NCBI GenBank assembly: GCA_964563895.1
Contig: CAZLYY010000001.1
Location: forward strand, 9,112 to 51,764
From: an uncultured Christensenella sp.
GTDB lineage: Bacteria; Bacillota; Clostridia; Christensenellales; UBA1242
Direction of reading: 5' to 3'
Length of the DNA: 42,653 nt
The notes beneath the pieces were generated by a model. That model had not been told where the DNA came from and did not search any database. It saw only the letters and a program-made list of their open reading frames with translations. Made by a program: the position numbers and the translations under genes. This document shows positions 11,335 to 31,446 of this stretch, in pieces. The number at the start of each line of letters is the position of its first letter. Position 1 is the first letter of the stretch.

Positions 11335-11343
11335 TTTTACATT

Positions 11344-13710: not shown

Positions 13711-13803
13711 TTTTGGAAGTGTTAGTTAAAATTAAGTTTTTAGTAAAGCAAGCAATGTTATTTGATAAATTTTATTGATTAAAGAACAACTTGAAAAAAT
13801 TTG

Positions 13804-13832
13804 TTGACATATATTTGCAAAAGTTGTAAAAT
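13804..13832 (+). promoter_or_regulatory. Sigma-A-type promoter of rpsO-pnp (TTGACA-17-TAAAAT)
   Basis: TTGACA at 13804-13809, an exact 17-nt spacer, and TAAAAT at 13827-13832. This leaves an ~80-nt leader before rpsO that can pair (acaaag...ctttgt), which may be an S15 autoregulatory leader. Confidence 0.55.
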
Positions 13833-13920
13833 GTTTTCAACCTAAGACAAAGGGGCTCGTGATACTCCGAAGAATAACGGCCAACTTTGTTTTATGGAGT
13901 TTATTAAAAGGAGTAAAAAA

Positions 13921-14181
13921 ATGGAAAAAGCAAAAAAGCAAGAGATTATCAAATCTTTTGGGAGAAATGACAAGGATACAGGTTCAACCGAAGTCCAAAT
14001 TGCACTTTTGACCGAAAGAATTAATCATTTGACCGAACACCTCAAAGCCAATGCTCAAGACAATCACAGTCGTAGAGGACTTATCAAACTTGTTGGTCAA
14101 AGAAAGGGACTTTTGTCATATCTTGAACGCGAAGATATCAAAAAGTACAGAGAGCTTAAGAAAGCACTCAACATTAGATAA
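13921..14181 (+). CDS. rpsO: 30S ribosomal protein S15
   Basis: [68 protein letters not shown]... is canonical S15. SD aaaaggag lies upstream of the ATG at 13921; the track ORF starts 9 codons earlier. Confidence 0.95.
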
Positions 14182-14187
14182 CTTAAT

Positions 14188-14230
14188 AGCGGGTAAAAAA
14201 TATTTTAGGTGTTTTTTGCTCGCTTTTTTG
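14188..14230 (+). terminator. rpsO-pnp intergenic hairpin with T-run (attenuator/terminator or processing site)
   Basis: The left arm agcgggtaaaaaa (14188-14200) pairs with ttttttgctcgct (14212-14224) with two G-U pairs, and is followed by TTTTTT. Confidence 0.5.
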
Positions 14231-14302
14231 TTTAAATATCCACTTAATTTTTAGAAAAGTGATATAAAAATTGTCTAGATATAGAAGAAAAAGGAGAATA
14301 AA

Positions 14303-16387
14303 ATGGAAAATGTATTTGAAACTACCGTTGGCGGACGCAAACTTGTCGTCAAAACGGGGAAATACAGCGAACAAGCAAATGGAACTTGTTGGGTAAAATG
14401 TGGGGACACAGTTGTTCAATGCAACGTAACAATGGCAGAAAAGCCAAGAGATGGGATTGACTTTTTCCCACTTGGAGTTGATTTTGAAGAAAAAATGTAT
14501 TCTGTGGGCAAAATCCCAGGGGGATACAAAAAGAGAGAAGGTAGACCAAGCGACAAAGCAATATTGACTTCTAGACTTATTGATAGGCCACTTCGTCCAT
14601 TGTTTCCAAAAGGGTTTTACAATGATGTCGCAGTAGTTTGTACAGCATTGTCAGTTGACCCAGACATTGCTCCAGAGCCACTTGCAATGATTGCTTCATC
14701 GGTTGCACTTAGCATTTCGGATATCCCATTTGCAGGGCCAACAGGTAGTGTTGTTGTGGGGTGTATAAATGACAAATTTATCATCAATCCAACTTTGGAA
14801 GAAAAAGAAAAAAGTGATATGCACGTTACAGTTTCTGGAACTCACGATGCAATTTTGATGGTTGAAGCAGGTGCAAAAGAAGTAAGCGAACAAAAAATGC
14901 TTGATGCTATTATGTTTGCACACGAAGAAATCAAAAAATTGGTTGATTTCCAAAATGAAATTGTAAAGAAAATTGGCAAGGCAAAGAGAACAGATATGCC
15001 ATTGTTCTTGCCAAGTGAAGAAGTTGACAAACTTGTTAGAGAATATGCAGACGAAAAACTTGATTATGCTCTTGACACAACAGATAGAGAAACAAGACAA
15101 AACAGACAAGAAGAAGTTGAAAAAGATGTTTATGCTCATTTTGAAGAAACTTTGGCTGGAAAAGAAAGCGAAATTGGTGATGTTTTGTATAAAATGACCA
15201 AGGAAAAGGTTAGAGCAAAAATTTTAAACAAGGGTGTTAGACCAGATGGAAGAAAATTAAAAGAAATTCGTCCTATTTGGTGTGAAGTTGGTGTTCTTCC
15301 AAGAGTTCATGGTAGTGCGGTGTTCACTCGTGGACAAACACAAGTTTTAAATTGTTGCACTTTGGGTACATTGAGCGAAGGGCAAAAGTTGGAAGGACTT
15401 GATGAAGAAGACAACAAGAGATATATTCACCAATACAATATGCCACCATATGCAACAGGAGAAGCAAGACCACTCAAAACTCCTGGTAGACGTGAAATAG
15501 GCCATGGTGCTTTGGCAGAACGTGCTCTTGAACCTGTTATTCCAAGTGAAGCAGATTTTCCATACACATTGCGTCTTGTTAGCGAAGTGTTGAGTTCCAA
15601 CGGTTCATCATCTATGGCAAGTGTTTGTGGTTCAACTTTGTCCCTTATGGACGCAGGTGTACAACTTAAAGCCCCTGTTGCAGGTATTGCTATGGGACTT
15701 ATAAAGGATACAGATAGCAAAAAGGTTGCAGTTTTGAGTGATATTCAAGGGTTGGAAGATTTCTTGGGCGATATGGACTTTAAGGTTGCAGGTACAGAAA
15801 AAGGTATCACAGCAATCCAAATGGATATCAAGATAAAGGGTATTGACAAGGAAATTTTGACAACAGCCCTTAATCAAGCAAGAGAAGGCAGAATGCACAT
15901 TTTGGGCATTATGCTTGATACAATTAGCGAACCTAGAAAGGAACTTAGCAAATTTGCTCCAAAGATTATAAGTTTTGAGATTGACCCAGAAAAAATTGGC
16001 GATGTTATAGGTTCAGGCGGAAAGGTTATCAACAAAATTATTGAAGAAACAGGTGTCAAAATTGATATTGACGATGATGGAAAGGTTCTCATTGCAAGCA
16101 TTGATAGCGACAAAGCACAACGTGCAAAAGAGATAATTTTGAGCATTGTAGGGAACATTGAAGTTGGCTCAACTTATGTGGGCAAAGTTGTTAGAACAAT
16201 GCAATTTGGTGCTTTTGTGGAACTCACTCCTACAAAAGACGGAATGATTCACATTTCTAAATTGTCAGACAAGAGAGTTGAAAAAGTTACAGATGTTGTT
16301 AATGTTGGCGATACAGTTAAGGTAGAAGTTATAAAAGTTGACAATACAGGTAGAGTAGATTTGAAACTTCTTGAAAAAGTAAAATAA
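14303..16387 (+). CDS. pnp: Polyribonucleotide nucleotidyltransferase (PNPase)
   Basis: Two RNase PH domains (REGRPSDKAILTSRLIDRPLRPLFP; GRREIGHGALAERAL), a KH domain (IGDVIGSGGKVINKI) and a C-terminal S1 domain (VGSTYVGKVVRTMQFGAFVEL). 694 aa with a strong SD. Confidence 0.97.
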   Translation: MENVFETTVGGRKLVVKTGKYSEQANGTCWVKCGDTVVQCNVTMAEKPRDGIDFFPLGVDFEEKMYSVGKIPGGYKKREGRPSDKAILTSRLIDRPLRPLFPKGFYNDVAVVCTALSVDPDIAPEPLAMIASSVALSISDIPFAGPTGSVVVGCINDKFIINPTLEEKEKSDMHVTVSGTHDAILMVEAGAKEVSEQKMLDAIMFAHEEIKKLVDFQNEIVKKIGKAKRTDMPLFLPSEEVDKLVREYADEKLDYALDTTDRETRQNRQEEVEKDVYAHFEETLAGKESEIGDVLYKMTKEKVRAKILNKGVRPDGRKLKEIRPIWCEVGVLPRVHGSAVFTRGQTQVLNCCTLGTLSEGQKLEGLDEEDNKRYIHQYNMPPYATGEARPLKTPGRREIGHGALAERALEPVIPSEADFPYTLRLVSEVLSSNGSSSMASVCGSTLSLMDAGVQLKAPVAGIAMGLIKDTDSKKVAVLSDIQGLEDFLGDMDFKVAGTEKGITAIQMDIKIKGIDKEILTTALNQAREGRMHILGIMLDTISEPRKELSKFAPKIISFEIDPEKIGDVIGSGGKVINKIIEETGVKIDIDDDGKVLIASIDSDKAQRAKEIILSIVGNIEVGSTYVGKVVRTMQFGAFVELTPTKDGMIHISKLSDKRVEKVTDVVNVGDTVKVEVIKVDNTGRVDLKLLEKVK

Positions 16388-16420
16388 TTTTATAACAACC
16401 TATTTATTAATATAAATTTT

Positions 16421-16454
16421 AAAAATCACTTTGGTTTTCAAGGTGATTTTTTTT
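16421..16454 (+). terminator. Rho-independent terminator of pnp
   Basis: The stem atcactttg (16425-16433) / caaggtgat (16439-16447), with one G-U pair, has a 5-nt loop and is followed by T8. Confidence 0.7.
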
Positions 16455-16714
16455 GTGTAAATTTTGATTATTATGTCAAAAAAACAAATTTTTTGTTACA
16501 TTTTATTAAATAATGTCAAAAAAACAAGATTTTACAAATTTAAATACATTAATTTTTCCGTCTAAAATATAGTCAAATTTTTATTAGGAAAAAATTTTTT
16601 TATAACTTTTTAAAAAAAATAGGGAGTAAATGTTGTATTTCAAAAATCTTGGTGTTAAAAACAAAATGAGCATGCTTATAGAAATCAAAAAAAATTTTTG
16701 TTAATTTTTTATTT

Positions 16715-16731
16715 TTGACAACTGTTGTCAA
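16715..16731. promoter_or_regulatory. Perfect inverted repeat TTGACAA-ctg-TTGTCAA upstream of the sigma-like regulator gene (candidate operator overlapping a -35-like hexamer)
   Basis: Read directly: ttgacaactgttgtcaa, 62 nt upstream of the ATG at 16793. Confidence 0.3.
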
Positions 16732-16792
16732 CTTTTGTGTCGTAAATTGTATTTGTAAAATCTTTAAGATTTTTTAAAAAGGGGAAATTAAA

Positions 16793-17371
16793 ATGCAAAA
16801 TATATCAAAGGTTCAAAGAGAAGTCCTTAATTCTAAAGGGCAAGTTGCAAAAAAAATGTGCAAGACGGTTTTGAATGCTTACAATTTGTTGCCATATATT
16901 ACAAGTTCAATAGATAGACTTGTGGCAAAAAAGGCAGAATCGTCAATGTGTTTGGCAGTTGGAAAAAGTGTAGAAAGTTATGCAAATGAAATGATTTTTT
17001 TGACGGAACAAAAGGTTAGTTTGATAAACTTAAAAGTTCTTATTGATGAAACCTTGAGTGAAATGAAGGAAAAGGAAGCGAGAATATTGCTTTTGAGATA
17101 TGTAGACAATGTAAAATGCGAAGATTGTTTGTCTATTTTAAATATGGACAAGCGAACATTTTTTAGACGTCTACCTATTGCGCTAAATTCCTTTTATAAA
17201 ATTTTCAATTTCAAACTTTGGCAAAGAAAATTGGCAAGCAAGGGAATAATGGGACAAATGAACAATGTTTTTATAAAAGTTAGAAAATTTGCCGACAATG
17301 GCGGAAATATCGCAAAAAACAAGGAAAATATTTGTGGACTTATTTTGAACAATCTTAGAAAAATGGTGTAG
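16793..17371 (+). CDS. Sigma-70 region-4-like HTH protein; candidate phage late-gene activator (ArpU/RinA/Xpf-like in role) or DNA-recognition factor of the adjacent capsid island
   Basis: The central segment EKEARILLLRYVDNVKCEDCLSILNMDKRTFFRRLPIALNSF looks like a sigma region 4 / LuxR-type HTH. I see no region 2 motif. SD aaaaagggg lies upstream. The function is inferred from position upstream of the terminase operon. Confidence 0.4.
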   Translation: MQNISKVQREVLNSKGQVAKKMCKTVLNAYNLLPYITSSIDRLVAKKAESSMCLAVGKSVESYANEMIFLTEQKVSLINLKVLIDETLSEMKEKEARILLLRYVDNVKCEDCLSILNMDKRTFFRRLPIALNSFYKIFNFKLWQRKLASKGIMGQMNNVFIKVRKFADNGGNIAKNKENICGLILNNLRKMV

Positions 17372-17378
17372 ACAACTT

Positions 17379-18215
17379 TTACAAAATATCATCGTGATAA
17401 TTTTCAATTTTCTTTATGTTTGAAGTTTTTTTAAGTTTAGGACTATTTGTAGTACACTCACAAGGCTTTTTGTGGGGCTTCTTAAAAAGGTTTGGTTTAA
17501 AAGCAAGCAGAAGCAAAAATATTGCAGGCAATAAAACAAGCAAAAGAAGAACAATTTTTACTCCGGGTGTTAAATCAACAAGGGAATAAAGATAATCGTT
17601 GTCGCTTTCACCAAAAGGATTGGCTATTGTTGTAACGACTTCGGTATTTTGTGGAATGGAACTATTCATTTCGCACAAGCCAGCATAAAAATAACCAAAT
17701 ACACCTTGTTTTGTCTTGCCATAATACCAAATTGTGCCACGACCTTTAGTCTTTTCTTCACCATTTGTATGCCCATAGTAAGTTACATTTTCATATTTTT
17801 CAATGGTAGTTAAGGCTTTTCCAGAACTTGTTGGACTATCCATAACAGTTGTCCCATCGGTAGTAAAGACATAAAAAGTTGCTTCGGCATATGGGGTGTT
17901 TGGCGTTTCATTTATAGCACTTACTTGTTCTTTTAAAATAAATCCCACAACATCTAGATATTGTGCCTTGTAAAACATCTCATTGTAGTTGGAAAGTAGC
18001 AAAACAAAATAACTTTTGGGAATTGCAAAAAGACAATTTTCATTTGTTGCATTGGGAGTTTTGTAGAGATTGACATCATCATTCTCTACTTTTGCATACA
18101 AAAAAGTAGTCATTTTTGCTTCGGCTTTTATGTTAAAGAAAGCCCCAAACGACAAAAAGGTGAGACAAAATAGAATTAAAATATAAACAATTGAATTTTG
18201 ATATTTGTTTTTCAT
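17379..18215 (-). CDS. Exported/membrane-anchored protein with two SH3b-like repeats and a C-terminal TM helix
   Basis: N-terminal signal/TM (IVYILILFCLTFLSFGAFF). SH3b-like strings VNLYKTPNAT...YKAQYLDVVGFILKEQV and TTVMDSPTSSGK...WYYGKTKQGVFGYFYAG. C-terminal TM IVLLLLVLLPAIFLLLLAF followed by a basic tail. Confidence 0.45.
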   Translation of the reverse strand: MKNKYQNSIVYILILFCLTFLSFGAFFNIKAEAKMTTFLYAKVENDDVNLYKTPNATNENCLFAIPKSYFVLLLSNYNEMFYKAQYLDVVGFILKEQVSAINETPNTPYAEATFYVFTTDGTTVMDSPTSSGKALTTIEKYENVTYYGHTNGEEKTKGRGTIWYYGKTKQGVFGYFYAGLCEMNSSIPQNTEVVTTIANPFGESDNDYLYSLVDLTPGVKIVLLLLVLLPAIFLLLLAFKPNLFKKPHKKPCECTTNSPKLKKTSNIKKIENYHDDIL

Positions 18216-18459
18216 TTGGTCCTGCCTTGTTAAACTTGAATTGTCTAAAACTCAACTTATTTTGTCTTTCAACAAATAAATTTTATACAAAATTATTATA
18301 GGGTATTTAGTCTTGAAAAAAGTGTAAATTTTTATCAAAAAATAAGGTTTTTAGGCTTTATAAGTAAATATTGACAAGTTGACAGTTATATAAACATTGT
18401 ATAACAAATTAGAAATTTAAAATTATCAAATATTTATTTTGTAAAAAGGTTTGATCATA

Positions 18460-19893
18460 ATGCAAAAAAATGTAATAAATAAACTAAAAAACGTGTGTGA
18501 AGAAATAACAAAACGCAAAGATGCTGACAAATTGTCTACATACAACACAGGCAAGATTGTCCACAAAAAGCAACTTGCTTTTCACAAGTGCAACAAACGA
18601 AATCGTTGGGTTTTTGGCGGAAATAGAACGGGGAAAACAGAATGTGGGGCGGTAGAAGTTGTATATCTAGCACGTGGCAACCACCCCTACAAACAAAACA
18701 AAAAAGACACAATTGGTTGGGTTGTTAGTTTGTCCAAACAAGTACAAAGAGATGTAGCCCAAAAGAAAATTTTGACTTATCTTAGCCCATATTATATAGA
18801 AGATGTGGTTATGCAAAGTGGGAAAAAAGACTTTCCTGAAAGCGGAGTGATAGACTACATAAAGGTTAAAAATGTTTTTGGTGGGACTTCAATAATTGGC
18901 TTTAAAAGTTGCGACCAAGGGCGAGAAAAGTTTCAAGGTGCAAGTCTTGATTATGTTTGGTTTGATGAAGAACCAACGGAAGAAATTTACCTAGAATGTC
19001 GTATGCGTGTACTTGACAAAAAGGGACAAATTTTTGGGACAATGACACCACTAAAAGGACTTACTTGGGTGTATGATGAAATTTATTTGAATGCAAAAAA
19101 CAGCAAAGAAGTGTGGTATGAAACAATGGAATGGGCGGACAACCCCTTTCTTGACCCCAATGAAGTGAGTTTTTTTGAAGAGTCGTTGTCCGAAGAAGAC
19201 CTAGAAAGTAGAAAATATGGAAGATTTTTCAATGCAAATGGGTTGGTTTATAAGGAATTTGATGAAAAAGTAAACGTGATTGACCCATTTGACGTCCCAA
19301 AAGATTGGTATGACAATATTTCAATTGACCCGGGGCTTAACAATCCATTGTCTTGTCATTGGTATGCGGTGGATTATGATGGCAATGTTTATGTTATTGC
19401 CGAACATTTTGAAAAAAATAGGGATATTGACTATCATTCACAAAGAATAAAAGAAAAATGTGAACAACTTGATTGGTTTGCGGACGAACAAGGCAATTAT
19501 TCCGCCTTGATAGATAGCGCAGCCGGACAACACACCTTGAATGGTGCCAAAAGTGTTGCCGAACTCTTTTACGAAAGGGGTATCAAAGTTAATACAAAAG
19601 TAAACAAAGATTTGTTTTCTGGCATTTCCGTTGTGAAAAGTTATCTTAAAAATTCTCTTGGAGTTAGCAAACTTTTTATTTTTAAAAATTGTACAAATTT
19701 AATTCGTGAAATAAAAAGTTATTTTTGGGGGGAAGGGGACAATCCAATAAAAAGAGACGACCACGCTTTAGACGAACTTAGATATTATCTTATGACAAAG
19801 CCCAAAGCACATTTTGAGCCTAAAACCGCACTTCAAAAATATAAAGATAAAATTATAAGAAAAGTAAATTTTGCTAGAAAATCTTTTGATTGA
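18460..19893 (+). CDS. Phage terminase large subunit (TerL)
   Basis: Walker A GGNRTGKTECGA, Walker B LDYVWFDEEP, coupling motif GTMTP, and the C-terminal RNase-H-like nuclease signature RDDHALDELRYYL. I preferred the ATG at 18460 to the TTG at 18451. Confidence 0.9.
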   Translation: MQKNVINKLKNVCEEITKRKDADKLSTYNTGKIVHKKQLAFHKCNKRNRWVFGGNRTGKTECGAVEVVYLARGNHPYKQNKKDTIGWVVSLSKQVQRDVAQKKILTYLSPYYIEDVVMQSGKKDFPESGVIDYIKVKNVFGGTSIIGFKSCDQGREKFQGASLDYVWFDEEPTEEIYLECRMRVLDKKGQIFGTMTPLKGLTWVYDEIYLNAKNSKEVWYETMEWADNPFLDPNEVSFFEESLSEEDLESRKYGRFFNANGLVYKEFDEKVNVIDPFDVPKDWYDNISIDPGLNNPLSCHWYAVDYDGNVYVIAEHFEKNRDIDYHSQRIKEKCEQLDWFADEQGNYSALIDSAAGQHTLNGAKSVAELFYERGIKVNTKVNKDLFSGISVVKSYLKNSLGVSKLFIFKNCTNLIREIKSYFWGEGDNPIKRDDHALDELRYYLMTKPKAHFEPKTALQKYKDKIIRKVNFARKSFD

Positions 19894-19925
19894 TTTAAGT
19901 AGTCGCAATTTTATAAGGGGGAAAA

Positions 19926-20210
19926 ATGGAAAACAAGGTGAGTGAAGATGTTGCTTTTTCTGCCTTGAAAAATTTGATAGAAGGAGCAACGACCATTGAA
20001 GAAATAGAAGAATACACCGTTGACAAAGAAAAGGGACTTGTTTTGAAAGGTACAAAAAAAGTTATAAAAAAACTTCCGCCCGATTTGAATGCGATAAAAA
20101 CAGTTTTATCTTTTGACAATTTGCAAAATGTTGAGCAAATGAGTGATGAAGAGTTGGAGCGGGAGAAACAAAAACTTTTCAAACAACTTTTAGACGAAGA
20201 AAAGAAATAA
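19926..20210 (+). CDS. Small acidic helical protein of unknown function between TerL and portal (possibly a remnant of a TerS oligomerisation region)
   Basis: Strong SD (aagggggaaaaATG), 94 aa. KKVIKKLPPDLNAIKTVL faintly resembles the C-terminal part of Firmicute-phage small terminases as I remember them. No HTH. Confidence 0.3.
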   Translation: MENKVSEDVAFSALKNLIEGATTIEEIEEYTVDKEKGLVLKGTKKVIKKLPPDLNAIKTVLSFDNLQNVEQMSDEELEREKQKLFKQLLDEEKK

Positions 20211-20262
20211 TTTGAAGGAACAATTTATAAAAATTTTATAAATGTACAAAAAAGGAGAAAGA

Positions 20263-21891
20263 ATGAAAAAAAAGAAAAATGATTTTGTTGAAGATTTGGT
20301 GCTTTCAGTTAGGGAAGACTTTTTAAAAAGGCAAAAAGAAAGAAAAATTTTTGAAAGTACTTGGCGTCTTAACAACAACTTTTTGTCCGGCAATCAATAT
20401 GTGGGCATTGACTCTTTATATGATATAAAGCAAGAAGACAAAGTTTTCTTTTGGCAAGAAAGAAAGGTTTACAACCACATTGCACCAATCATCGAACAAC
20501 GTCTTGCAAAACTCAATGCAATAAAGCCCGAAATGGATATAATGGCAAGCAGTTCCAACGAAAATGACCAAAAGGTTGCAAGTTTATCTCAAGATATTTT
20601 ACGTGGTGCTTACGAAAAGTTTAATTTGAGCCAAATTATATCAAAAGCAACCGTATGGAGTGAGATTGCGGGAACAAGTTTTTACAAAGTTGTGTGGAAT
20701 GGTGCTTCCGGTCGCAAAATTTATGATAAAAATGGCAAACTTGTATACGAAGGTGATGTTGAAATAAGCGCATTGTCCCCATTTGAAATTTATCCGGACA
20801 ACAATTATGTTGAAGATATAAATGAGTGCGAGAGCATTATTCACGCAAAGGCATATAGTGTAAAAGCAATAAAAAACATTTGGGGAGTAGATGTAAAAGG
20901 GGAAGAAGTTGATGTTTTTGATGCTTCAACAAGTTTAGAACCTATCAAACAAAACAATCAAGCAATTGTGATTGAACGATACGAAAGCCCAAGCATTGAG
21001 TATCCAAACGGACGACTTGTTATTGTATGCGAAGACAAACTTTTGTACGTGGGCGAGTTGCCTTTTGTCAATCTTCCAGACGGCAAAAGGGGATATCCTT
21101 TTGTAAAGCAAGTTTGTTTGCGTGTGCCAAATTGTTTTTGGGGGAAAAGTGTTATAGAAAAACTTATTCCAATCCAAAGGGCATACAATGCTATAAAAAA
21201 TAGAAAACACGAATATATAAATAGGCTTTCAATAGGTGTTTTGGCGGTTGAAGACGGCAGTGTCGATGTGGACGAACTATCTCAAGAAGGTTTGCAACCG
21301 GGGAAAATAATTGTATATAGGCAAGGCGCTACACCACCAAAATTTTTAGATGAAGAATCTCTTCCAAAAGATTTTGACACCGAAGAAGAAAATTTGCGAA
21401 ACGAATTTAGCGAAATTAGTGGGGTAACAAACATTTTATCCAATCAATTTAGTGCCAACACTTTGAGTGGAACGGCATTGCAACTTTTGATAGAACAAGA
21501 TACTTCACGATTAAGTTCAAGCGTTGATGAAATTGACAGAGCAATAAAATTGGTTGCAAAAATGATTTTGCGTTTGTACAAGCAATTTGCGGTTATGCCA
21601 CGATTGCTCAAAGTTGCAAACAATGTAGGCAAAGCCGACCTTGTGTATTTCAAAAATAGCGACCTAGGGGTTGAAGATGTAGTATTTACAACAGATAGTA
21701 GTTTGGCAGAAAGCCTATCAACAAAAAGAGAACATATTCTCAAACTTCTATCTTCAAATGTTTTAAAAGACAAAGATGGGAATGTGGACAGCGAAGTAAA
21801 ACGCAAGATTTTGGAACTTTTTGGAATGAATTTTGTTTTGCCAACTTCTCAAAAGGAAAATTTAGACAAAAAGCAAAACGAACAAAAATAA
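20263..21891 (+). CDS. Phage portal protein
   Basis: 542 aa directly after the terminase. The N-terminal ...FESTWRLNNNFLSGNQYV... (the E..W..N..F..GNQ motif common in portals), its size, and its position before scaffold and capsid support the call. The SD aaggag precedes the ATG at 20263 rather than the one at 20242. Confidence 0.75.
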   Translation: MKKKKNDFVEDLVLSVREDFLKRQKERKIFESTWRLNNNFLSGNQYVGIDSLYDIKQEDKVFFWQERKVYNHIAPIIEQRLAKLNAIKPEMDIMASSSNENDQKVASLSQDILRGAYEKFNLSQIISKATVWSEIAGTSFYKVVWNGASGRKIYDKNGKLVYEGDVEISALSPFEIYPDNNYVEDINECESIIHAKAYSVKAIKNIWGVDVKGEEVDVFDASTSLEPIKQNNQAIVIERYESPSIEYPNGRLVIVCEDKLLYVGELPFVNLPDGKRGYPFVKQVCLRVPNCFWGKSVIEKLIPIQRAYNAIKNRKHEYINRLSIGVLAVEDGSVDVDELSQEGLQPGKIIVYRQGATPPKFLDEESLPKDFDTEEENLRNEFSEISGVTNILSNQFSANTLSGTALQLLIEQDTSRLSSSVDEIDRAIKLVAKMILRLYKQFAVMPRLLKVANNVGKADLVYFKNSDLGVEDVVFTTDSSLAESLSTKREHILKLLSSNVLKDKDGNVDSEVKRKILELFGMNFVLPTSQKENLDKKQNEQK

Positions 21892-21967
21892 ATCTAAAAA
21901 TAGAATAGTGCAAAAATTACAATATAAATTTGATTTTAATATTATTAAAAAATAGGAGAATAAAAAA

Positions 21968-22393
21968 ATGGAAGAAAAAATGGAACAACTAGACTTTCAA
22001 GCAGAAAAGGAGAGCTCCAACTTGGGCAAATTCAAGGACGCACAAGCGCTTCTTGATGCCTACAACAATTTGCAAAGCGATTACACAAAAAAGTGTCAAG
22101 CATTGTCGTCTTTGCAAAAAAATCTCAAAGAAAATGAAGGGGAACAACCTTCACCTGAGAGAGAAAAAGAAGATTTATCTAGTGAAGATAGGATAAAACT
22201 TCTTCAAGACTATGTCTACAACAATTCTGACTTCCGAGACAAACTTTTGGCAAAATATTTTGATGATATTATTCTTCCCAAAAGTCCACGACTTATAGGG
22301 AGTGATAGGGGTAGCGATACCATTGTTAGCCCTGTATCCAAACCAAAGACCTTGGAAGAAGCAGGAAAAATTGTTAGGGATATGTTGAAATAA
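21968..22393 (+). CDS. Capsid scaffolding protein (candidate)
   Basis: 141 aa, highly charged and helical. LGKFKDAQALLDAYNNLQSDYTKKCQAL resembles the conserved N-terminal string of Firmicute-phage scaffold proteins. It sits between portal and capsid, and no prohead protease gene is present. Confidence 0.6.
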   Translation: MEEKMEQLDFQAEKESSNLGKFKDAQALLDAYNNLQSDYTKKCQALSSLQKNLKENEGEQPSPEREKEDLSSEDRIKLLQDYVYNNSDFRDKLLAKYFDDIILPKSPRLIGSDRGSDTIVSPVSKPKTLEEAGKIVRDMLK

Positions 22394-22501
22394 AATTACA
22401 AAAAAATGGCAATTTAGATGGAAATAGAACATAAGTTATAGGCTAGAAATTTTGTATATTATCTTCAAAAATTTTTAAAAAATTAAAAGGAAAAATTAAA
22501 A

Positions 22502-23671
22502 ATGGTAACATTAGATTCAGCACAAAATGCATTAAAATCAGTATATCTTGGAGTTTTATCCGAACAACTCAACATAAAATCCAATGCATTTTTATCAAAA
22601 ATTAAACAAAGTAGCAAAGACGTTTATGGCAAGGAAATAATCAAACTTGCACCATATGGTCTTAATGGTGGGATATGTGCATCAAGCGAAACAGGTACAT
22701 TGCCAACCGCATCTTCTCACAAATTTTTGCAATTTAAGAGTGGGCTTAAAAACCTTTATGGAACAATATCTATTTCAGACAAAGCAATCAGGGCAAGTAT
22801 GTCCGATAGTGGTGCTTTTGTAAATCTTTTGAGTGATGAAATGGACAGCCTTGTCAAGTCAAGTGCTTTCAATCTTGGTCGTATGGTTTATGGGGACGGC
22901 ACAGGTCTTTTGGCAACAGTTACAGTAGCAGATTCAAAGACAACTTTTAACAGTGTCAAAAATTTTGTTGAAGGAATGAAAGTTGATATTTATAGTAGCA
23001 CAGGGGCACTTGCAAAGAGTGGACTTGTCGTTACTTACGTTGACAGAACAAACAAAACAATTACATTGAGCGAAGGTTATACTTTTGTGAATGGTGATAA
23101 AATTTACGCTTGTGGTTCAAAGGACAACGAAATTACAGGTATAAAAAGACTTTTTGACAAGACAGAAGCAAATAGAATGCTTTATGGCGTTGATAGAACA
23201 AATTATGCTTGGCTTTATCCTTATGTGGAAGAAAATTCTAAAACAGCAGTGGAAATAAGCGATTCTCTTATCCAAACAGCACTCAATTCAATTGAAGAAG
23301 AAACAGGTTCGCAAGTAGACTTTATTGCGGTTTCAGGCGATGTAAGAACGGCTTATCAAAAGTATTTATCCGCCAATAGACGCAACCTTGATATAGAAGT
23401 TTTGGCAGGTGGGTACAAGGCTATGACTTATGCTGGGATACCTGTCGTTTACGAAAGATTTGTTGACGATGGAACAATGTATCTTCTCAACACACAAGAC
23501 TTCAATTTGCACCAACTTTGCGATTGGGAATGGCTCACAACAGACAACGGAAGCATACTCATACCATCTGCAACAAGTCCAACATACACAGCAACCCTTG
23601 TAAAATATGCCGAACTTATTTGCGATAGACCAGGTGCACAAGGCAAAATTTCTAATATTAAAAATTCTTAA
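22502..23671 (+). CDS. Major capsid protein (presumed HK97-fold/P22-coat-like)
   Basis: 389 aa, Ala/Gly/Thr-rich and low in charge clusters. The strings ...LYGTISISDKAIRAS...AFVNLLSDEMDSLVKSSAFNLGRMVYGDGTGLLA... are typical of annotated phage major capsid proteins. Canonical position after the scaffold gene. Confidence 0.75.
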   Translation: MVTLDSAQNALKSVYLGVLSEQLNIKSNAFLSKIKQSSKDVYGKEIIKLAPYGLNGGICASSETGTLPTASSHKFLQFKSGLKNLYGTISISDKAIRASMSDSGAFVNLLSDEMDSLVKSSAFNLGRMVYGDGTGLLATVTVADSKTTFNSVKNFVEGMKVDIYSSTGALAKSGLVVTYVDRTNKTITLSEGYTFVNGDKIYACGSKDNEITGIKRLFDKTEANRMLYGVDRTNYAWLYPYVEENSKTAVEISDSLIQTALNSIEEETGSQVDFIAVSGDVRTAYQKYLSANRRNLDIEVLAGGYKAMTYAGIPVVYERFVDDGTMYLLNTQDFNLHQLCDWEWLTTDNGSILIPSATSPTYTATLVKYAELICDRPGAQGKISNIKNS

Positions 23672-23766
23672 TTACAAAAATTTTAAAGCGAACAAATCAT
23701 TATTTGAAAAATTAGTCAAATTGAATATATTGGGCTAATTTTTCTTTTAAAAAAGTCTTTATGTAG

Positions 23767-23793
23767 GCCAACTTATAACTATTGTAAGTTGGC
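23767..23793 (+). promoter_or_regulatory. 9-bp hairpin just downstream of the capsid gene (possible mRNA-stabilising or attenuating structure)
   Basis: gccaactta (23767-23775) / taagttggc (23785-23793), with no T-run after it. Confidence 0.3.
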
Positions 23794-23823
23794 TTGCAAA
23801 AAGATAATAAAAAGGGAAAAATT

Positions 23824-24195
23824 ATGAAAGGAAAAATAAAATTAACAAGAGATTTTTTCAATATTTCTCAAAGGCTAAAAAAGATTGATAGAGAGTATGA
23901 CCTTGTTTTTGACAAGGAAAGAAAAATTTTTGAAGTGTACATAGGCAAAGTTTTTTGTTTTAAAATTGGGGAAAAACTTGACAATTTAGCCCTCAAAAAG
24001 GCCTACGAAACACATATAAGGAACAAAAAGATTTTGCTTGAAAAGATAGAAAAAGACAATATGCTTTTGGAGAAAAAAGAAAAGGAACAAACAATAAACA
24101 AGGCAAAATTTGACTTAAAAAATATGATTGAATTTGCATCAAAAACAGGAAAAGATGAGAATTTTTATAACATAAATTCAACCAAATGGTTTTAA
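23824..24195 (+). CDS. Hypothetical structural/assembly protein (123 aa, basic, helical)
   Basis: SD aaaaggg lies before the ATG at 23824; the track ORF starts at the TTG at 23794. No motif recognised. Confidence 0.4.
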   Translation: MKGKIKLTRDFFNISQRLKKIDREYDLVFDKERKIFEVYIGKVFCFKIGEKLDNLALKKAYETHIRNKKILLEKIEKDNMLLEKKEKEQTINKAKFDLKNMIEFASKTGKDENFYNINSTKWF

Positions 24196-24207
24196 AAGGA
24201 GAATAAA

Positions 24208-24774
24208 ATGACCGTATTAGAATTGTTAAAGATAGCAAGCAATTATCTTTCTATTGATAAGGAACTTCAAATTTTTTTTGAAGAAAGTGATACAAGCAGT
24301 GCAACCGATGAAGCAAAAAGCAAATTTAACAAACTTTTGCTTAGTTTCAACAATATTATAAACGAAATTGCATTGCACAAAGCACCAACAAAAACTATTG
24401 AAGTTGAGACTTCTTTTGGCTTAAACGAGATTGATTTAAGTGCTCAAAATTGCAACAAAGTGTTAAGTGTAAAATTAAAAAACGGCAAAAGATTGACCTT
24501 TTTACAAACAGGGCAGGTTGTTGTTTTTGATTGTTTGTCAAGAGAAAAAGTTTTGATAGAATACTCCTTTATTCCCAAAATTTACAAGGCGGACGACAAT
24601 CTTGATATTTTTACAAACATAGGCAATAGACTTCTTGCCATAGGTATTGCAAGCGAGTATTGCTACCTTGACGAAGTTTTTGACGATGCAAAAGAGTTGA
24701 GAGAAGAATTTGAAAAAGGTTTAAAGTCTATCCTTACAAAAAATGGTTTTATGCAAGGGAGAAATTTTGTATGA
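24208..24774 (+). CDS. Candidate head-to-tail adaptor (position and size equivalent to P22 gp4)
   Basis: 188 aa with SD aaaaggag. Its 4-nt ATGA overlap with the next ORF implies coupling. Assigned only from gene order (TerL-portal-scaffold-coat-gp4-gp10 in P22) and size (gp4 is ~166 aa). Confidence 0.35.
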   Translation: MTVLELLKIASNYLSIDKELQIFFEESDTSSATDEAKSKFNKLLLSFNNIINEIALHKAPTKTIEVETSFGLNEIDLSAQNCNKVLSVKLKNGKRLTFLQTGQVVVFDCLSREKVLIEYSFIPKIYKADDNLDIFTNIGNRLLAIGIASEYCYLDEVFDDAKELREEFEKGLKSILTKNGFMQGRNFV

Positions 24775-26228
24775 CATTAAAGAAAAATAAAATAGTTTAT
24801 AAAAATTTTTCACAAAACTTTAATTTTGATGATAGTGAATATCTCACTTCAACAAATTGCAGTTTAAAGTACAATGTTCAATCTTCAAAAGGGTATTTGA
24901 CCGAAGGGAAAGGACTAAAAAAACTATGCTTGCCATTTTTTTATCCAACAGTCCCAACCGAAGTTGAAACATCTTCTCAAAATTTCAATTTTGTTAGGAT
25001 TTGGTATTATTCTTATTATAGTGAAACGGATAAAAAGCAAAAATATTTTATGATTGCATTTGGCAACGACAATTATTTATATTATTCAAATTTGCATACA
25101 CACGCAGGGAAGTTTTACAAAATCCCCAATTGTTCGGCATTGTCATCTGTGCCAGATACAATCAACTTTATGTTAGGCACCGACTCTGTCATTGGTTTTG
25201 CATCAACAACAGACAATCTTCTTGTATGGTATTGCGACAAAGACCCTTACTTAGCCAAAAACACACCACGTTTCAAATCTATTTGTTTGCATGGGGATAG
25301 ACTTTTTGCCATTGATGCAGATGAAGATAATGTTGTGAGATATAGCGCCACCTACAACCCGCTTGACTGGAAAAAGGATATTTCTTCTTCCGAAGACGCG
25401 GACAAAATCACACTCAATGACTACAAAAGCAATTTGCAAAAATTGGTGTCCTTTAACGATTTTGTTTATGTCTTTCACGACTATGGCATATCCAAAATTA
25501 CAAGTTACAATTTAACCAAAAAATTTTATTGCACAAACATTTACAACACAACTAGCAAAATTTATACCAACACAGTTTGTGTATGTGGAGAGTATATCTA
25601 TTTTTTGCAAGAAGACGGCTTGTATAGGTTGGATAAAACAGATATAAAAAGAATAGATTTCAAGTTTTCCGACCTTTTTATGCACAATCAAGACGAAGCA
25701 AATAGTTGCTATTTTGATGGAAAATATTATCTTGCTTGCAAACTTGACTTTAATGATGGGGAAGAATCTACATACAACAACTCTCTTGTAGAATTTGATT
25801 TTGAAAACAACGAATTTAACATAATAAAAGGCATTGATATAGTGTCTATGCTACCAATCAATATATCTGGTGTAAACAAAATAGTTATTGCAAGGCGAGA
25901 TAAAAATATTTTGTACGAACTCACTTCTACTTCACAAATAGACTCACTTGCTACATTTAAATTTTGGCAAAGCGGACAAATAACTTTTGGAACAATTGAT
26001 GACAAGAAAATAATAAAAGATTTGCATATTTACTCAAAATATGATTGCGATTTTACAATCACTTCAAATAAAAAAACTTTTAAGTTTTCTATCAAAGGGC
26101 AAGACAAAATTCAACGTGTGCCGATTAATCTTGTGGGGAATGAATTTAAGTTTTCTTTGTCATCTACCGCAGATAAAATGCTTATAAAATATCTTGAAAT
26201 AAATTATGTTACAAAAAGTTATGATTAA
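24771..26228 (+). CDS. Candidate tail hub/nozzle or DNA-stabilisation protein (position and size equivalent to P22 gp10); beta-rich and repeat-like
   Basis: 485 aa (P22 gp10 is ~472 aa). It is rich in Y/F/N/D beta-strand-like repeats (DFVYVFHDYGISKIT, GEYIYFLQEDGLYRLD, DGKYYLACKLDF), which suggests a beta-propeller or beta-sandwich. No sequence-level identification. Confidence 0.35.
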   Translation: MTLKKNKIVYKNFSQNFNFDDSEYLTSTNCSLKYNVQSSKGYLTEGKGLKKLCLPFFYPTVPTEVETSSQNFNFVRIWYYSYYSETDKKQKYFMIAFGNDNYLYYSNLHTHAGKFYKIPNCSALSSVPDTINFMLGTDSVIGFASTTDNLLVWYCDKDPYLAKNTPRFKSICLHGDRLFAIDADEDNVVRYSATYNPLDWKKDISSSEDADKITLNDYKSNLQKLVSFNDFVYVFHDYGISKITSYNLTKKFYCTNIYNTTSKIYTNTVCVCGEYIYFLQEDGLYRLDKTDIKRIDFKFSDLFMHNQDEANSCYFDGKYYLACKLDFNDGEESTYNNSLVEFDFENNEFNIIKGIDIVSMLPINISGVNKIVIARRDKNILYELTSTSQIDSLATFKFWQSGQITFGTIDDKKIIKDLHIYSKYDCDFTITSNKKTFKFSIKGQDKIQRVPINLVGNEFKFSLSSTADKMLIKYLEINYVTKSYD

Positions 26229-26328
26229 AAAAATGTAAAAATCTTTTATTCTTAAAAATTATGTTCAAAAAAGTTTATTGTGTTGTAGTCTTTTGTTTTT
26301 ACAACAAAATGTTAAAAGGAGACAAAAT

Positions 26329-26406
26329 ATGGATAAAGAAAAATTTGACGAAAAGGAAATCAAGGAAGAGTTTATGAAACTCTTGATAAAACTTGGATTA
26401 TACTAA
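26329..26406 (+). CDS. 25-aa micro-ORF with a strong SD upstream of the holin-like genes
   Basis: aaaaggagacaaaatATG; MDKEKFDEKEIKEEFMKLLIKLGLY*. It stops 1 nt before the ATG of the next gene. Confidence 0.3.
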   Translation: MDKEKFDEKEIKEEFMKLLIKLGLY

Positions 26407-26407
26407 T

Positions 26408-26629
26408 ATGTGGGAAGAAATCTTTAATCAAGCGACTACAAATGGAATATGGGCGGTGCTTTTTGTTGGTTTGCTATTTTTCATCTTGACGGATAGTGCA
26501 AAACGCGAGAAAAAGTATCAAGAAACCATTGCAAAACTCAATTCACACCTAGATTGTGTGGAAGATATAAGAGACGAAATAAAAGAAATAAGGACATCAC
26601 TTATTAAAAAAGGAGATGTTAAAAATTGA
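26408..26629 (+). CDS. BhlA/UviB-family holin-like protein
   Basis: MWEEIFNQATTNGIWAVLFVGLLFFILTDSAKREKKYQETIAKLNSHL... has a single N-terminal TM followed by a charged coiled tail. This matches the layout and local motifs of SPbeta BhlA and C. perfringens UviB as I recall them (...GPFAVLFCWLLFYVMKTSKERESKLY...). Confidence 0.6.
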   Translation: MWEEIFNQATTNGIWAVLFVGLLFFILTDSAKREKKYQETIAKLNSHLDCVEDIRDEIKEIRTSLIKKGDVKN

Positions 26630-26988
26630 AAGATTCAAAAACAAATTTAGATGAAAACATTCAAGACACAACACAAGACACAGAACAAATTTTGGGGAAC
26701 ACACTTGACAATGACACGCAAGAAGAAAAGCCAACTTTCAACCCAAGCAGTTTATCTTTTTGGGTGGGACTTATAGCCATAATTTTAGGAACGCTTGAAG
26801 CATTTTTAATTGCTTTCAATGTCCAACTTGAAATAAACCTTTTGGTTGAAGGTGTGTCGACAATTCTTTTTGCTTTTGTTTGTTTTGGTGTTTTAAAAAC
26901 AAACAACAAAGTTATAACAAAAGACGATATAAAGTCTTCTCTTGAAGAAAATTTAAAATCAAAGAATAAAGATAAAAACGAAGAATAA
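26626..26988 (+). CDS. Two-TM small membrane protein (holin-like/antiholin-like) with an acidic N-terminus and a basic C-terminus
   Basis: The TTG start overlaps the previous stop by 4 nt (TTGA). TM1 is FWVGLIAIILGTLEAFLIAF and TM2 is VSTILFAFVCFGVL, followed by a charged C-terminal tail. Confidence 0.45.
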   Translation: MKDSKTNLDENIQDTTQDTEQILGNTLDNDTQEEKPTFNPSSLSFWVGLIAIILGTLEAFLIAFNVQLEINLLVEGVSTILFAFVCFGVLKTNNKVITKDDIKSSLEENLKSKNKDKNEE

Positions 26989-27078
26989 TCAATTTATAAA
27001 AACATTGCAAAATCACGACAAATTAAATTGATTTTTCAAATTAAAAATTTGAAATAAAAGTTTTTCGCAAATATTTAT

Positions 27079-27141
27079 AAAAAAGGACAATAAATCAAGG
27101 AAAATATTTTGGTTTTCCAGCGGTTTGTTGTTCTTTTTTTT
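27079..27141 (+). terminator. Compound hairpin with T-run closing the island operon
   Basis: The outer arms aaaaaaggacaa (27079-27090) / ttgttctttttt (27128-27139) enclose the inner hairpin ggaaaa (27099-27104) / ttttcc (27113-27118). Confidence 0.35.
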
Positions 27142-27368
27142 GTGCAAAATTTATTGTGTAATTTCAATATTTTTTCATTTTAAAATTTACTGCTAATTTT
27201 AAATTAAAGATTGATTTTCCCCAAAATTTGTATTGTTGTTTATTTGCTTGCTTTTTTTTGTTGTTTCAATATAATAAAAGTATGTATGGTTGCGTGTAAG
27301 TTTTTTTGCAACTGCATTTAAAATTTTTATTGTTGGATATTATATGAAGATTTCAAAGGGAATTAAAT

Positions 27369-28310
27369 ATGATTTTTAGAAATACTTTTAGGTTACTTTT
27401 AAGCAATTTTTCCAATGTTTGGAAAATGCTTGTTTATTATTGTATTTGTGTTGCGTTGACTTTTTGTGTTTGTGGTGTGCTTATTCACCCTATTATTGTA
27501 AAATTGTCCGAAGCAAATGTCTTTCAAGATTTTGCAGAAGCGGTAAACGGCTTGTTTTCCGCCACACCTACAACAACCGCAATTTCTTTGCAAGAAGTAG
27601 GACGTGTTGCTTTGTCAATTCTTTTGTCAAAAGAGTTGGTTGCCAATTTTATAATTTTGTGTTTTTGGCTTGCTATTGTTTTTCCTTTTACATTAGATTT
27701 AGCACAACTTCCTATGGGGGAAGTGTTGTATGGATATATGAGTAGTCAAACAAAATATGGCTTTACAGGTCGTTTTATAAAGACTATTGGCAAGAGTGCG
27801 GAATATAGCATTATTAGGATTTTTATGACATTGCTATTCAATGCATGTATTTTGGGGTTGACTTATTTGATAGTAAAGATTGCAACATATGGCAATCCAC
27901 TCTATTTAGGGCTAGATATTCTTTTGTTGGCGGTTATGTTTGTTGTCGTTGCACTCAAATATTCACTTCTTTCTTGTTGGATGCCTGCAATTTCCGTTCT
28001 TGATATGGGTGTTTTTGAAGCATTACGTCAAAACTTTAGATGTATTTCTAGACGTTTTGGAAGTATCTTTTCCAATTGTTTGCTTCTTGTTATGTCCGCT
28101 TTTGTATTCAACCTTATTTTTGGTGTGTTTTCATTTACCGTTTCATTTGTCGTATCATTGCCACTCACCGCATTTGTTTTTGTAGTTTTTCAAATGGTTA
28201 GTTTCTTTTCTGTACAAGGAATGAGATTTTATGTCTATCCTGATTTGTTTATTTCTCCTAAAACTTTTGAAGAATCTCTCAGCGTTGACGACTCAAAATA
28301 TATCATTTAA
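27369..28310 (+). CDS. Polytopic membrane protein of unknown function (about 6-7 TM helices)
   Basis: 313 aa made of successive hydrophobic segments (MLVYYCICVALTFCVCGVLI, FIILCFWLAIVFPF, IFMTLLFNACILGLTYLIV, ILLLAVMFVVVAL, LLLVMSAFVFNLIFGVFSF...). No catalytic motif recognised. Confidence 0.5.
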   Translation: MIFRNTFRLLLSNFSNVWKMLVYYCICVALTFCVCGVLIHPIIVKLSEANVFQDFAEAVNGLFSATPTTTAISLQEVGRVALSILLSKELVANFIILCFWLAIVFPFTLDLAQLPMGEVLYGYMSSQTKYGFTGRFIKTIGKSAEYSIIRIFMTLLFNACILGLTYLIVKIATYGNPLYLGLDILLLAVMFVVVALKYSLLSCWMPAISVLDMGVFEALRQNFRCISRRFGSIFSNCLLLVMSAFVFNLIFGVFSFTVSFVVSLPLTAFVFVVFQMVSFFSVQGMRFYVYPDLFISPKTFEESLSVDDSKYII

Positions 28311-30994: not shown

Positions 30995-31409
30995 CTAGGT
31001 GGACAGGTGGTCGCAAGCTAAATATGGTGTTTAGTTTGAGGAAAGTCCGAGCTTCATTGGACTAGGGTGCTGAGCAACTCTCAGTGGAGGCAACTCTAAG
31101 GAAAGTGCAACAGAAATAAACTACGGCATCAAATTTTGTTGTAAAAAGTGTTTACATTTTGCCTTAATAGTGCTGTGCATGTAGTTAAGGGTACAACAAA
31201 TAGCCGTAAAAGGTGGAAAGGCGGGGTAAGAGCCCACCGGCAAATTGGCGACAATTTGTGCTATGTAAACCCCACTTGAAGCAAGATTAAAAAGGAACGT
31301 AATGCGTAGTCCTGCTAGTTCCTTTAAAAGTATCGCTTGAGCATATTGGCAACAATGTGCCTAGATAGATGACCACTTAATACAGAACTCGGCTTACAGT
31401 TCACACTAG
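30995..31409 (+). ncRNA. rnpB: RNase P RNA (bacterial, type B-like)
   Basis: Universally conserved GAGGAAAGTCCGAGC (P4 5' strand, ~31040) and ACAGAACTCGGCTTAC (P4 3' strand, ~31382). The P1 pairing ctaggtggac (30995-31004) / gttcacactag (31399-31409) includes G-U pairs, and GGTAAGAGCCCACCG is a J11/12-P12 type string. About 415 nt with its own promoter and terminator. Confidence 0.9.
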
Positions 31410-31410
31410 C

Positions 31411-31446
31411 AAAATATCTCACAGTTTTTCTGTGAGATATTTTTGT
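31411..31446. terminator. Bidirectional terminator shared by the convergent rnpB and sigK
   Basis: An 11-bp perfect stem, atatctcacag (31414-31424) / ctgtgagatat (31430-31440), with loop ttttt, an A-run upstream and a T-run downstream. Confidence 0.75.

Follow-up and report, generated by a model that had tools for sequence, protein, structure and literature searches.

To our knowledge, only a handful of gene transfer agent (GTA) gene clusters are known, almost all of them in Alphaproteobacteria. Here we describe a compact capsid gene cluster in a 42,653-nucleotide stretch of DNA from an uncultured Christensenella sp. (assembly GCA_964563895.1, contig CAZLYY010000001.1, positions 9,112 to 51,764). 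This whole stretch is referred to as the window, and the gene cluster as the module. The module is best explained as the remnant of an anciently domesticated short-tailed phage of P22/SU10-like type, which is now a resident gene cluster of the Christensenellales. We have high confidence that the element is ancient, vertically inherited and under purifying selection. Its most likely function, judging from its genes, is that of a GTA-like particle system packaging host DNA, and we regard this function as probable, with real room for doubt.

The closest described system is FpGTA of Faecalibacterium prausnitzii, a podovirus-type GTA reported in bioRxiv in 2024 and in Nat Commun in 2026 (PMC12946183). 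FpGTA is a 10.5-kb operon encoding a small terminase subunit (TerS) without DNA-binding domain, the large terminase subunit (TerL), portal, major capsid protein (MCP), conserved hypothetical proteins and a nozzle. The particles are 40 nm in size, apparently tail-less, and carry 8.4-8.9 kb of random host DNA, while fibres, holin and endolysin are encoded at a second locus 125 kb away. The authors leave it undecided whether the particles deliver DNA (PMC12946183). GTA-like packaging is also reported there for Christensenellaceae, with reads of ~6.3 kb for QANA01 and ~4.1 kb for HGM11616, and no gene cluster is named (PMC12946183). In the literature, we found no other paper mentioning such an element in Christensenellales. 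An initial annotation of the window had stated that no GTA of P22/podovirus type was characterised, a statement that the description of FpGTA makes outdated (PMC12946183).

The module and its immediate borders contain the following features, given with the evidence for each.

16449 to 16528: tandem 40-nt direct repeat in the spacer between pnp and the regulator gene; candidate operator region.
16793 to 17371, plus strand: putative late-gene activator of sigma-region-4 / DUF1492 (ArpU/RinA-like) type, 192 aa; weak hidden Markov model (HMM) matches, and orthologues.
17379 to 18215, minus strand: membrane-anchored SH3b-like protein, 278 aa; conserved position, and SH3_3 in orthologues.
18460 to 19893, plus strand: TerL, 477 aa from ATG, in an open reading frame (ORF) that opens with TTG at 18451; Pfam, PHROG and motifs.
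19926 to 20210, plus strand: TerS-like core, 94 aa; PHROG matches of orthologues.
20242 to 21891, plus strand: portal of P22/SU10 type; Pfam and PHROG.
21968 to 22393, plus strand: putative scaffold, 141 aa, acidic and helical; position and composition.
22502 to 23671, plus strand: MCP of a podovirus-type HK97-like family; NCBIfam and PHROG.
23824 to 24195, plus strand: small ORF of the structural part, 123 aa by the gene call in strain L149, the ORF opening at 23794; conservation.
24208 to 24774, plus strand: probable head-to-tail adaptor, 188 aa; weak AlphaFold2 (AF2) model and Foldseek.
24771 to 26228, plus strand: podovirus tail nozzle/hub with a P22 gp10-like beta-propeller, 485 aa; AF2 and Foldseek.
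26408 to 26629, plus strand: holin of the BhlA/UviB family, 73 aa by gene call, the 78-aa ORF opening at 26393; Pfam.
26626 to 26988, plus strand: second holin-like protein with two transmembrane (TM) segments, 120 aa; synteny and a weak Phage_holin_1 match.
27369 to 28310, plus strand: polytopic membrane protein (mem313), 313 aa; membership in the module uncertain.

The module resembles FpGTA as a ~10-kb chromosomal operon of gut Clostridia with a TerS-like gene, TerL, portal, MCP and hypothetical genes. The gp10-like nozzles of both are matched to the same PDB entry, 8eap. Integrase and replication genes are absent from both, and FpGTA is near-ubiquitous in its host genus. In contrast, the MCP of FpGTA is named as a member of the N4-gp56 family, whereas that of the module belongs to NF033394. 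Between portal and MCP, a Prp-like protein is encoded in FpGTA and the 141-aa putative scaffold in the module, which has no Prp-like gene. The gene order also differs, as the TerS-like gene of the module follows TerL, the regulator and the divergent SH3b gene come first, and the BhlA and two-TM holins come last. On the basis of the MCP family and the annotations in Table S2 of PMC12946183, the module appears not to be orthologous to FpGTA. Apparently, another podovirus lineage was domesticated here independently.

Other described systems share fewer traits with the module. RcGTA of Alphaproteobacteria is likewise a vertically inherited head-packaging cluster kept by purifying selection under host regulators, with dispersed accessory genes and release by lysis, and its TerS is without DNA-binding domain as cited in PMC12946183. 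It differs in its siphovirus origin, its prohead protease and long tail, its CtrA/GafA-type regulation and its host phylum, and the sequences are unrelated. PBSX of Bacillus is also a phage-derived element of a Firmicute chromosome, whose particles leave the cell by lysis and contain host DNA in pieces shorter than the element. It is a 28-kb myovirus-type element forming a killing particle with a contractile tail, however, and has no likeness to the module in sequence or architecture. The closest cultured phages are those of Jasminevirus (Arthrobacter phages Adat, Brad and Jasmine), Microbacterium phage Shocker and Cellulosimicrobium phage DS1, with twilight-zone identities of 27% for TerL, 24% for portal and 25-28% for MCP. 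These phages have TerL, small ORFs, portal, scaffold-like ORF and MCP in the same succession as the module. Unlike the module, they have full lytic genomes of 45 kb, including tubular tail proteins, a 1803-aa internal protein, two lysins, a holin and DNA-metabolism genes.

In the window, the module spans 16.8-27.0 kb, a cluster of ~10.2 kb between pnp (14303-16387) and the RNase J gene (28657-30780). Every ORF of at least 60 aa in this island is accounted for, no tRNA or att-like flanking repeat was found in it, and its GC content and composition equal those of the flanks. The observation in the initial annotation is therefore correct: it had described an island between pnp and rnj with uninterrupted ORFs, flank-like composition and 4-nt coupling overlaps, and the latter are confirmed at 24771/24774 (adaptor and nozzle) and 26626/26629 (the two holins). 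Its list of a sigma-region-4-like regulator, TerL, portal, scaffold, MCP, three structural ORFs and two holins also holds, with TerL, portal and MCP confirmed by HMM searches. The absence of integrase, repressor, replication, fibre and endolysin genes was likewise recovered by the ORF inventory and HMM searches. Among window ORFs of at least 40 aa, there is no integrase, excisionase, alpA-type regulator, repressor, primase or replication gene. Thus, as in a GTA, a structural and packaging cluster lies in the chromosome without functions for integration, excision or replication.

To follow the module across hosts, one genome per species of the Genome Taxonomy Database was scanned. The scan detected MCP relatives in 164 species, and the analysis was continued with the 80 best loci. 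Nearly all of the 80 share one order: regulator, SH3b gene on the minus strand, TerL, TerS-like, portal, scaffold, MCP, small ORF, adaptor, nozzle and one or more holins. Identity across these loci ranges from 90 to 52% for MCP and from 88 to 59% for TerL. The module directly follows pdaB and an SSB-like gene in 40 of the 46 species with enough upstream sequence. Within a closer clade, the downstream neighbors mem313, rnj and sigK are conserved as well. Only the lineage of the window, which includes L001 and L149, has the segment recJ-rpsO-pnp (11248-16387) separating the SSB-like gene from the module. The pnp/rnj interval proposed earlier as the locus therefore holds for the window itself, whereas the deep chromosomal anchor is pdaB-ssb upstream and pnp is a lineage-specific neighbor. 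Compared with the upstream regions of L084, L004 and L006, the placement of recJ-rpsO-pnp is a local rearrangement beside the element.

We checked ~600 orthologous ORFs, and none of them contains a genuine internal stop. Apparent internal stops in 13 ORFs are artefacts of over-extended high-scoring segment pairs or of start assignment, and the high dN of the L067 portal has the same origin. Between the window and the closest other species, dS is saturated while the proteins are still 88-89% identical; for this reason, closer species pairs and a strain of the same species were used. Every gene has a dN/dS of 0.01-0.25 in the closer pairs, with values like those of rnj and sigK. The exact MCP of the window was not found among the indexed contigs. 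A strain at 99% identity, L149, differs from the window within the module by 52 synonymous and 14 non-synonymous changes (pN/pS 0.07). MCP or TerL distance correlates with pdaB distance at r = 0.94 (42 taxa), with sigK at 0.89-0.92 and with ssb at 0.64, and none of 2000 permutations in a Mantel test of MCP against ssb reached the observed value. Module proteins show a mean distance of 0.26-0.30 compared with 0.39-0.41 for the flanking host proteins, so that the module evolves more slowly.

The shared order, fixed locus, intact ORFs, low dN/dS and co-divergence together identify an ancient, vertically inherited element under selection, and neither a decaying prophage nor a satellite. Vertical inheritance and purifying selection over long times are also what is seen in GTAs. 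A cryptic prophage remnant without current function, on its way to decay, would agree with the absence of most phage functions and with the loss or displacement of TerL or the nozzle in some lineages. Such a remnant is hardly credible when all ORFs are intact in ~80 species with saturated synonymous sites, dN/dS and within-species pN/pS are as low as given above, and the module proteins diverge more slowly than the host proteins beside them. The initial annotation had preferred a retained, host-kept particle-forming system to a decaying prophage, and had suggested comparing synteny and dN/dS among relatives. Both comparisons, with the same locus in 40 of 46 species and dN/dS of 0.01-0.25, strongly support this view, as does the co-divergence with host genes.

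The same compact module, SH3b gene included, is present on 59 contigs classed as 'viral' in IMG/VR. We looked among the IMG/VR contigs for a relative that is a full phage, and all strong matches were this compact module. The locus L141, with a partial MCP of 38% identity, was considered as such a relative and rejected as an unrelated phage.

TerL of the window matches Terminase_6N (2e-13) and Terminase_6C in Pfam, and phrog_2 (1e-30). Its Walker A, Walker B, coupling and nuclease motifs were all found, and both Walker motifs are kept in 53 of 53 complete orthologues. In the near-identical strain L149, TerL is called as a protein of 477 aa. The portal matches P22_portal (1e-20), SU10_portal (1e-7) and phrog_156 (2e-40). 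The initial annotation found no recognisable TerS and did not list the ORF at 19926-20210. This ORF belongs to a family in which 7 of 40 orthologues match phrog_309 'terminase small subunit' (best 3e-7) and one matches phrog_23444, which speaks against the absence of a TerS. The matches are limited to columns ~190-260 of the 319 in the profile, and the family alignment contains a conserved motif. The N-terminal part of TerS proteins usually carries the DNA-recognition domain. From the matching columns, the 94-aa ORF would be a TerS-like core without this N-terminal part, and the lack of a recognisable DNA-recognition part suggests headful packaging of any available DNA.

The MCP matches the NCBIfam model NF033394 (capsid_maj_Podo) at 1e-73 with 248 bits and phrog_14242 at 6e-55, and has 5977 database relatives. 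It shows no match to N4-gp56 (TIGR04387) at E<0.1. No N-terminal delta-like extension is present in the MCP, and no prohead protease is found in the module. The scaffold candidate (21968-22393) is conserved in 70 loci and has no family match in Pfam or PHROG searches; we assign it as a putative scaffold by its place between portal and MCP and by its composition. The small ORF at 23824-24195 is present in 69 loci with dN/dS of 0.1-0.3, and searches of Pfam, PHROG and the PDB gave no match for it. Profile searches of PDB sequences with the alignments of the MCP and of the 485-, 188-, 94- and 133-aa families gave nothing significant.

Structure prediction extends the module beyond the head. The AF2 model of the 485-aa protein (24771-26228) has a pLDDT of 88 and a pTM of 0.88. 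In Foldseek searches against the PDB, its best matches are all podovirus nozzle or hub proteins, namely the Pa223 tail (2e-20, TM-score 0.72), VP1 (4e-17, TM-score 0.74), P22 gp10 (8eap_D, 3e-13), GP4, SU10 and T7 gp12. TM-scores to P22 gp10, VP1 and Pa223 are 0.6-0.74, and matches in BFVD carry the annotation 'P22 Gp10'. No tblastn match was found in 50,697 phage genomes. The identity of the nozzle came from structure prediction and Foldseek only, and not from profile searches. By its model, the ORF is a podovirus tail nozzle with the P22 gp10 fold. The description of the island as 'head/neck-only' has to be widened to head, neck and nozzle. With a nozzle present, the particle would have a tail hub and thus more than a neck.

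Directly upstream, and overlapping the nozzle gene by 4 nt, lies the 188-aa ORF (24208-24774). Its AF2 model, built on a shallow alignment of 7 sequences, is of low confidence (pLDDT 66). The best Foldseek matches are neck or tail chains of ~200 aa from podoviruses, including KHP30 (6e-5), SU10, A4, Pa223, crAss001, VP1 and GP4, at TM-scores of ~0.3. This protein is probably the head-to-tail adaptor, as suggested by the model and its matches. Of the traits of P22/SU10-type morphogenesis, the module has a P22-type portal, a scaffold candidate, an HK97-like coat and a gp10-like nozzle, with the adaptor added by a weak match. Window ORFs include no candidates for needle or plug, ejection proteins, tailspikes, fibres, receptor-binding proteins (RBPs) or endolysin.

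The nozzle and adaptor bear on another explanation, in which the module is a satellite like the capsid-forming phage-inducible chromosomal islands (cf-PICIs). Such an element makes its own capsids and packages itself, and obtains tails and induction from a helper phage. Like cf-PICIs, the module is a small island with TerL, portal, MCP and head-completion proteins and no long-tail genes. It also has a regulator in front, and many copies are called 'viral' in IMG/VR. In contrast, a cf-PICI moves: it has integrase, att sites and replication genes, is excised on induction by a helper and packages itself. The module is inherited vertically, and genes for integrase, excisionase, alpA-type regulator, primase or replication are absent from it, as are att repeats. 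The module has its own adaptor and podovirus nozzle, so there is no place for a borrowed siphovirus tail. The TerS-like protein without recognisable DNA-recognition domain, the fixed position and the co-divergence with host genes (r = 0.94) also argue against it. The cf-PICI-like alternative raised in the initial annotation fails on these points, and we consider it very improbable. Both the satellite and the junk explanations are essentially excluded.

In 47 of 53 loci, the module begins with the regulator, which precedes the packaging genes. Among 32 orthologues, 12 match Sigma70_r4_2 (best 1e-5) and 2 match DUF1492 at 2e-8. We take the ArpU/RinA-type (DUF1492) family to be late-gene activators of Firmicute phages. 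Upstream of orthologous regulators, the Spo0A-box heptamer TGTCGAA occurs at 2.16 per kb compared with 0.27 per kb in other non-coding DNA, which is an 8-fold enrichment. The sites cluster ~45 and ~100 nt before the start codon of the regulator. In the Onthoplasma clade, one 0A box lies between a TTGACT -35 and a TATACT -10 element. The consensus of the 0A box was taken from PMC3485338 and PMC2731898. The region upstream of the window regulator has one-mismatch variants only, of which two (TGTCAAA) are located in the tandem 40-nt repeat at 16449-16528, one per copy. As a lead, these Spo0A-box-like sites may point to host control at the stationary-phase or sporulation switch, by activation or by repression as in phi29.

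Further non-coding features were noticed around the regulator. A block of ~60-80 nt upstream of it (16612-16690 in the window; 3888-3960 in L001) is conserved between two species with saturated synonymous sites. In the window, this block contains a good ribosome binding site (AGGGAG) and a possible 24-aa ORF. An operator-like palindrome, TTGACAACTGTTGTCAA, is located at ~16714-16731. The ~85-nt spacer between the SH3b gene and TerL in the Onthoplasma clade (e.g. L025 and L056) contains a strongly conserved non-coding block, TTTTAACAYAAAAA ... TTTGACAAGTTTAGG ... GAGTTTTAGTGTAAATTA. Its spacing is not sigma-70-like, and it may be the target promoter of the sigma-region-4-type activator.

In 51 of 53 loci, the SH3b gene is flanked by the regulator and TerL and has the opposite orientation; its dN/dS is 0.04-0.18. 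The protein has SH3b-like domains of cell-wall-binding type, an N-terminal signal or TM segment and a C-terminal TM segment. SH3_3 is found in 9 of 39 orthologues, and there are weak PDB matches to the SH3 domains 2kt8 and 4krt. A catalytic domain was searched for in this protein, and none was found. The initial annotation left out this conserved gene; the kept position and selection indicate that the minus-strand gene belongs to the module.

At the distal end, the BhlA holin matches Holin_BhlA (PF10960) at 4.5e-17, with 62.2 bits against a cutoff of 22.6. It has the architecture of the family, a single N-terminal TM segment followed by a charged helix. In 25 loci a BhlA holin follows the nozzle, and it bears this annotation in L081, L084 and L146; dN/dS is ~0.03. 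Of 75 related loci, 68 have a member of the two-TM holin-like family behind the nozzle, at a median distance of 147 nt, and orthologues of the window protein carry weak Phage_holin_1 annotation. The gene of mem313 is kept between the holins and rnj only in the closer clade (15 loci) and has no family match; it may be a syntenic host gene rather than a member of the module.

Additional ORFs are seen near the holins of distant relatives. In L146, a DUF7934 protein of 302 aa (13870-14778) lies between the nozzle and the BhlA holin. L081 (14271-15908) and L147 (14919-18555) carry a 545-aa DUF285 protein and two ORFs without assignment, which measure 437 and 724 aa. These ORFs could encode lineage-specific particle or surface components.

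From the gene content, we infer particle production, non-specific packaging of host DNA, regulation by Spo0A and release by holins. The sigma-region-4-type activator (16793-17371), whose own promoter bears Spo0A boxes in many species, would switch on the late operon. Scaffold and MCP would form a procapsid on the portal. TerL and the TerS-like core would then carry out headful packaging, probably not sequence-specific, so that host DNA enters. GTA particles contain quasi-random host DNA in pieces shorter than their own cluster and do not favor that cluster; the GTA-like reads from Christensenellaceae genera, of ~4-6 kb (PMC12946183), compare with ~10.2 kb for the module. The adaptor and the gp10-like nozzle would seal the portal, and the two holins would free the particles. 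Any transfer to recipients would need fibres or RBPs encoded elsewhere, as in locus II of FpGTA.

A different explanation is that the capsid system is kept for a role other than transfer. Such a role could be the controlled release of extracellular DNA, DNA handling or altruistic lysis coupled to stationary phase or sporulation, or a particle that does not deliver its DNA, like PBSX, which packages DNA and yet acts as a killer. In line with it, the locus and the flanks of ~140 related loci are without fibres, RBPs, ejection proteins and endolysin, the holins are the sole lysis genes, and a conserved SH3b membrane protein lies within the module. The Spo0A-box-like sites upstream of the regulator and the sporulation genes as neighbors also agree with it, and the FpGTA authors are likewise undecided on DNA delivery (PMC12946183). 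On the other hand, TerL catalytic motifs, portal, adaptor and nozzle are strictly conserved, which points to particles that are filled, sealed and nozzle-bearing, and accessory genes may be encoded at another locus, as they are in FpGTA and RcGTA. We regard a non-transfer role as the main rival, possible but unlikely. We also speculate about an order-wide, Spo0A-wired capsid system, hundreds of species old, acting as a DNA-packaging organelle that is nozzle-capped, without fibres and ejection proteins, and serves a purpose other than classical transduction. Possible purposes are the packaging of chromosomal DNA to be released at lysis of the mother cell or population, or delivery by a route that known phages do not use. 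On the host side, the conserved SH3b membrane protein would then be a novel component. This idea is doubtful at present.

Several observations weigh against a GTA-like system that packages host DNA. FpGTA has been shown to package host DNA, whereas the module is known from its genes alone. Neither the window nor the 10-kb flanks of its relatives encode a fibre, RBP, ejection protein, plug protein or endolysin, so that the locus does not account for the entry of DNA into a recipient. The window regulator itself has matches below threshold (Sigma70_r4_2 at 3e-3 and DUF1492 at 0.013, with 16-17.5 bits) in addition to phrog_36 at 2e-6, and the window 94-aa TerS-like protein itself has no significant family match. 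The link to Spo0A is a motif enrichment among related sequences, and the window carries one-mismatch variants only. In some lineages the regulator-SH3b-TerL block is away from the portal, and in a few others restriction-modification genes replace the adaptor and nozzle, so the cluster is not invariant.

The rearranged loci have features of their own. In L081, L145, L147, L146, L023 and L007, TerL, the regulator and the SH3b gene are all missing from the 7-10 kb next to the TerS-like and portal genes, and ABC-transporter and other host genes lie upstream of the portal instead. The cluster seems to be split into two loci in these lineages, and their capsid genes are still under purifying selection (MCP dN/dS 0.015 for L023/L022). 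In L094/L136 (6.5-16 kb), L123 (11-20 kb), L142 and L046, the region after the MCP is without adaptor and nozzle. L094 has a type I hsdM/S/R-like trio there, and L123 has two Dcm-like methyltransferases and a 902-aa ORF. A LexA-like gene lies behind these restriction-modification genes. Tail genes were considered for the large ORFs that follow the MCP in L094 and L123, and rejected because these ORFs belong to restriction-modification systems. It looks like the distal part of the module was taken over by an inserted or replacing defence island in these lineages.

The surroundings of the module are those of a spore-forming Clostridia bacterium, with a GC content of ~33% for the window. The nearest relatives of the window are metagenome-assembled genomes labelled Christensenellales, 'uncultured Christensenella' or Ca. 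Onthoplasma. Host genes in the window include gyrB-gyrA, a pdaB-type sporulation deacetylase gene, the SSB-like gene, recJ, rpsO, pnp, the RNase J gene, sigK, rarA, yabP/yqfD, ybeY and era. We notice a K/E-rich N-terminal extension of ~250 aa in GyrA (6260-9394), where the GyrA HMM match starts at residue 253. RNase J (28657-30780) has a K/S/T-rich N-terminal extension of ~155 aa with the match starting from residue 160, and its relatives have 550-600 aa. These are either genuine low-complexity extensions or over-long ORF calls. A bacterial RNase P class A RNA (252 bits) is encoded at 30995-31413 on the plus strand, between RNase J and sigK.

The first podovirus-type GTA cluster, FpGTA, was reported only in 2024-2026 (PMC12946183). 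Since FpGTA is already known, the module counts as a further case and not as a new kind. It provides concrete candidate genes for the GTA-like packaging in Christensenellaceae that was left without a locus in PMC12946183. Virome pipelines label these loci 'viral', as seen for the 59 IMG/VR contigs. Throughout an entire order of gut bacteria, the module has stayed at a single chromosomal site. Should it be active, Christensenellales would possess capsid-mediated gene flow as an inherent trait, and the module would offer a second Gram-positive model for the domestication of phage heads, their regulation, possibly by Spo0A, and their release by holins alone.

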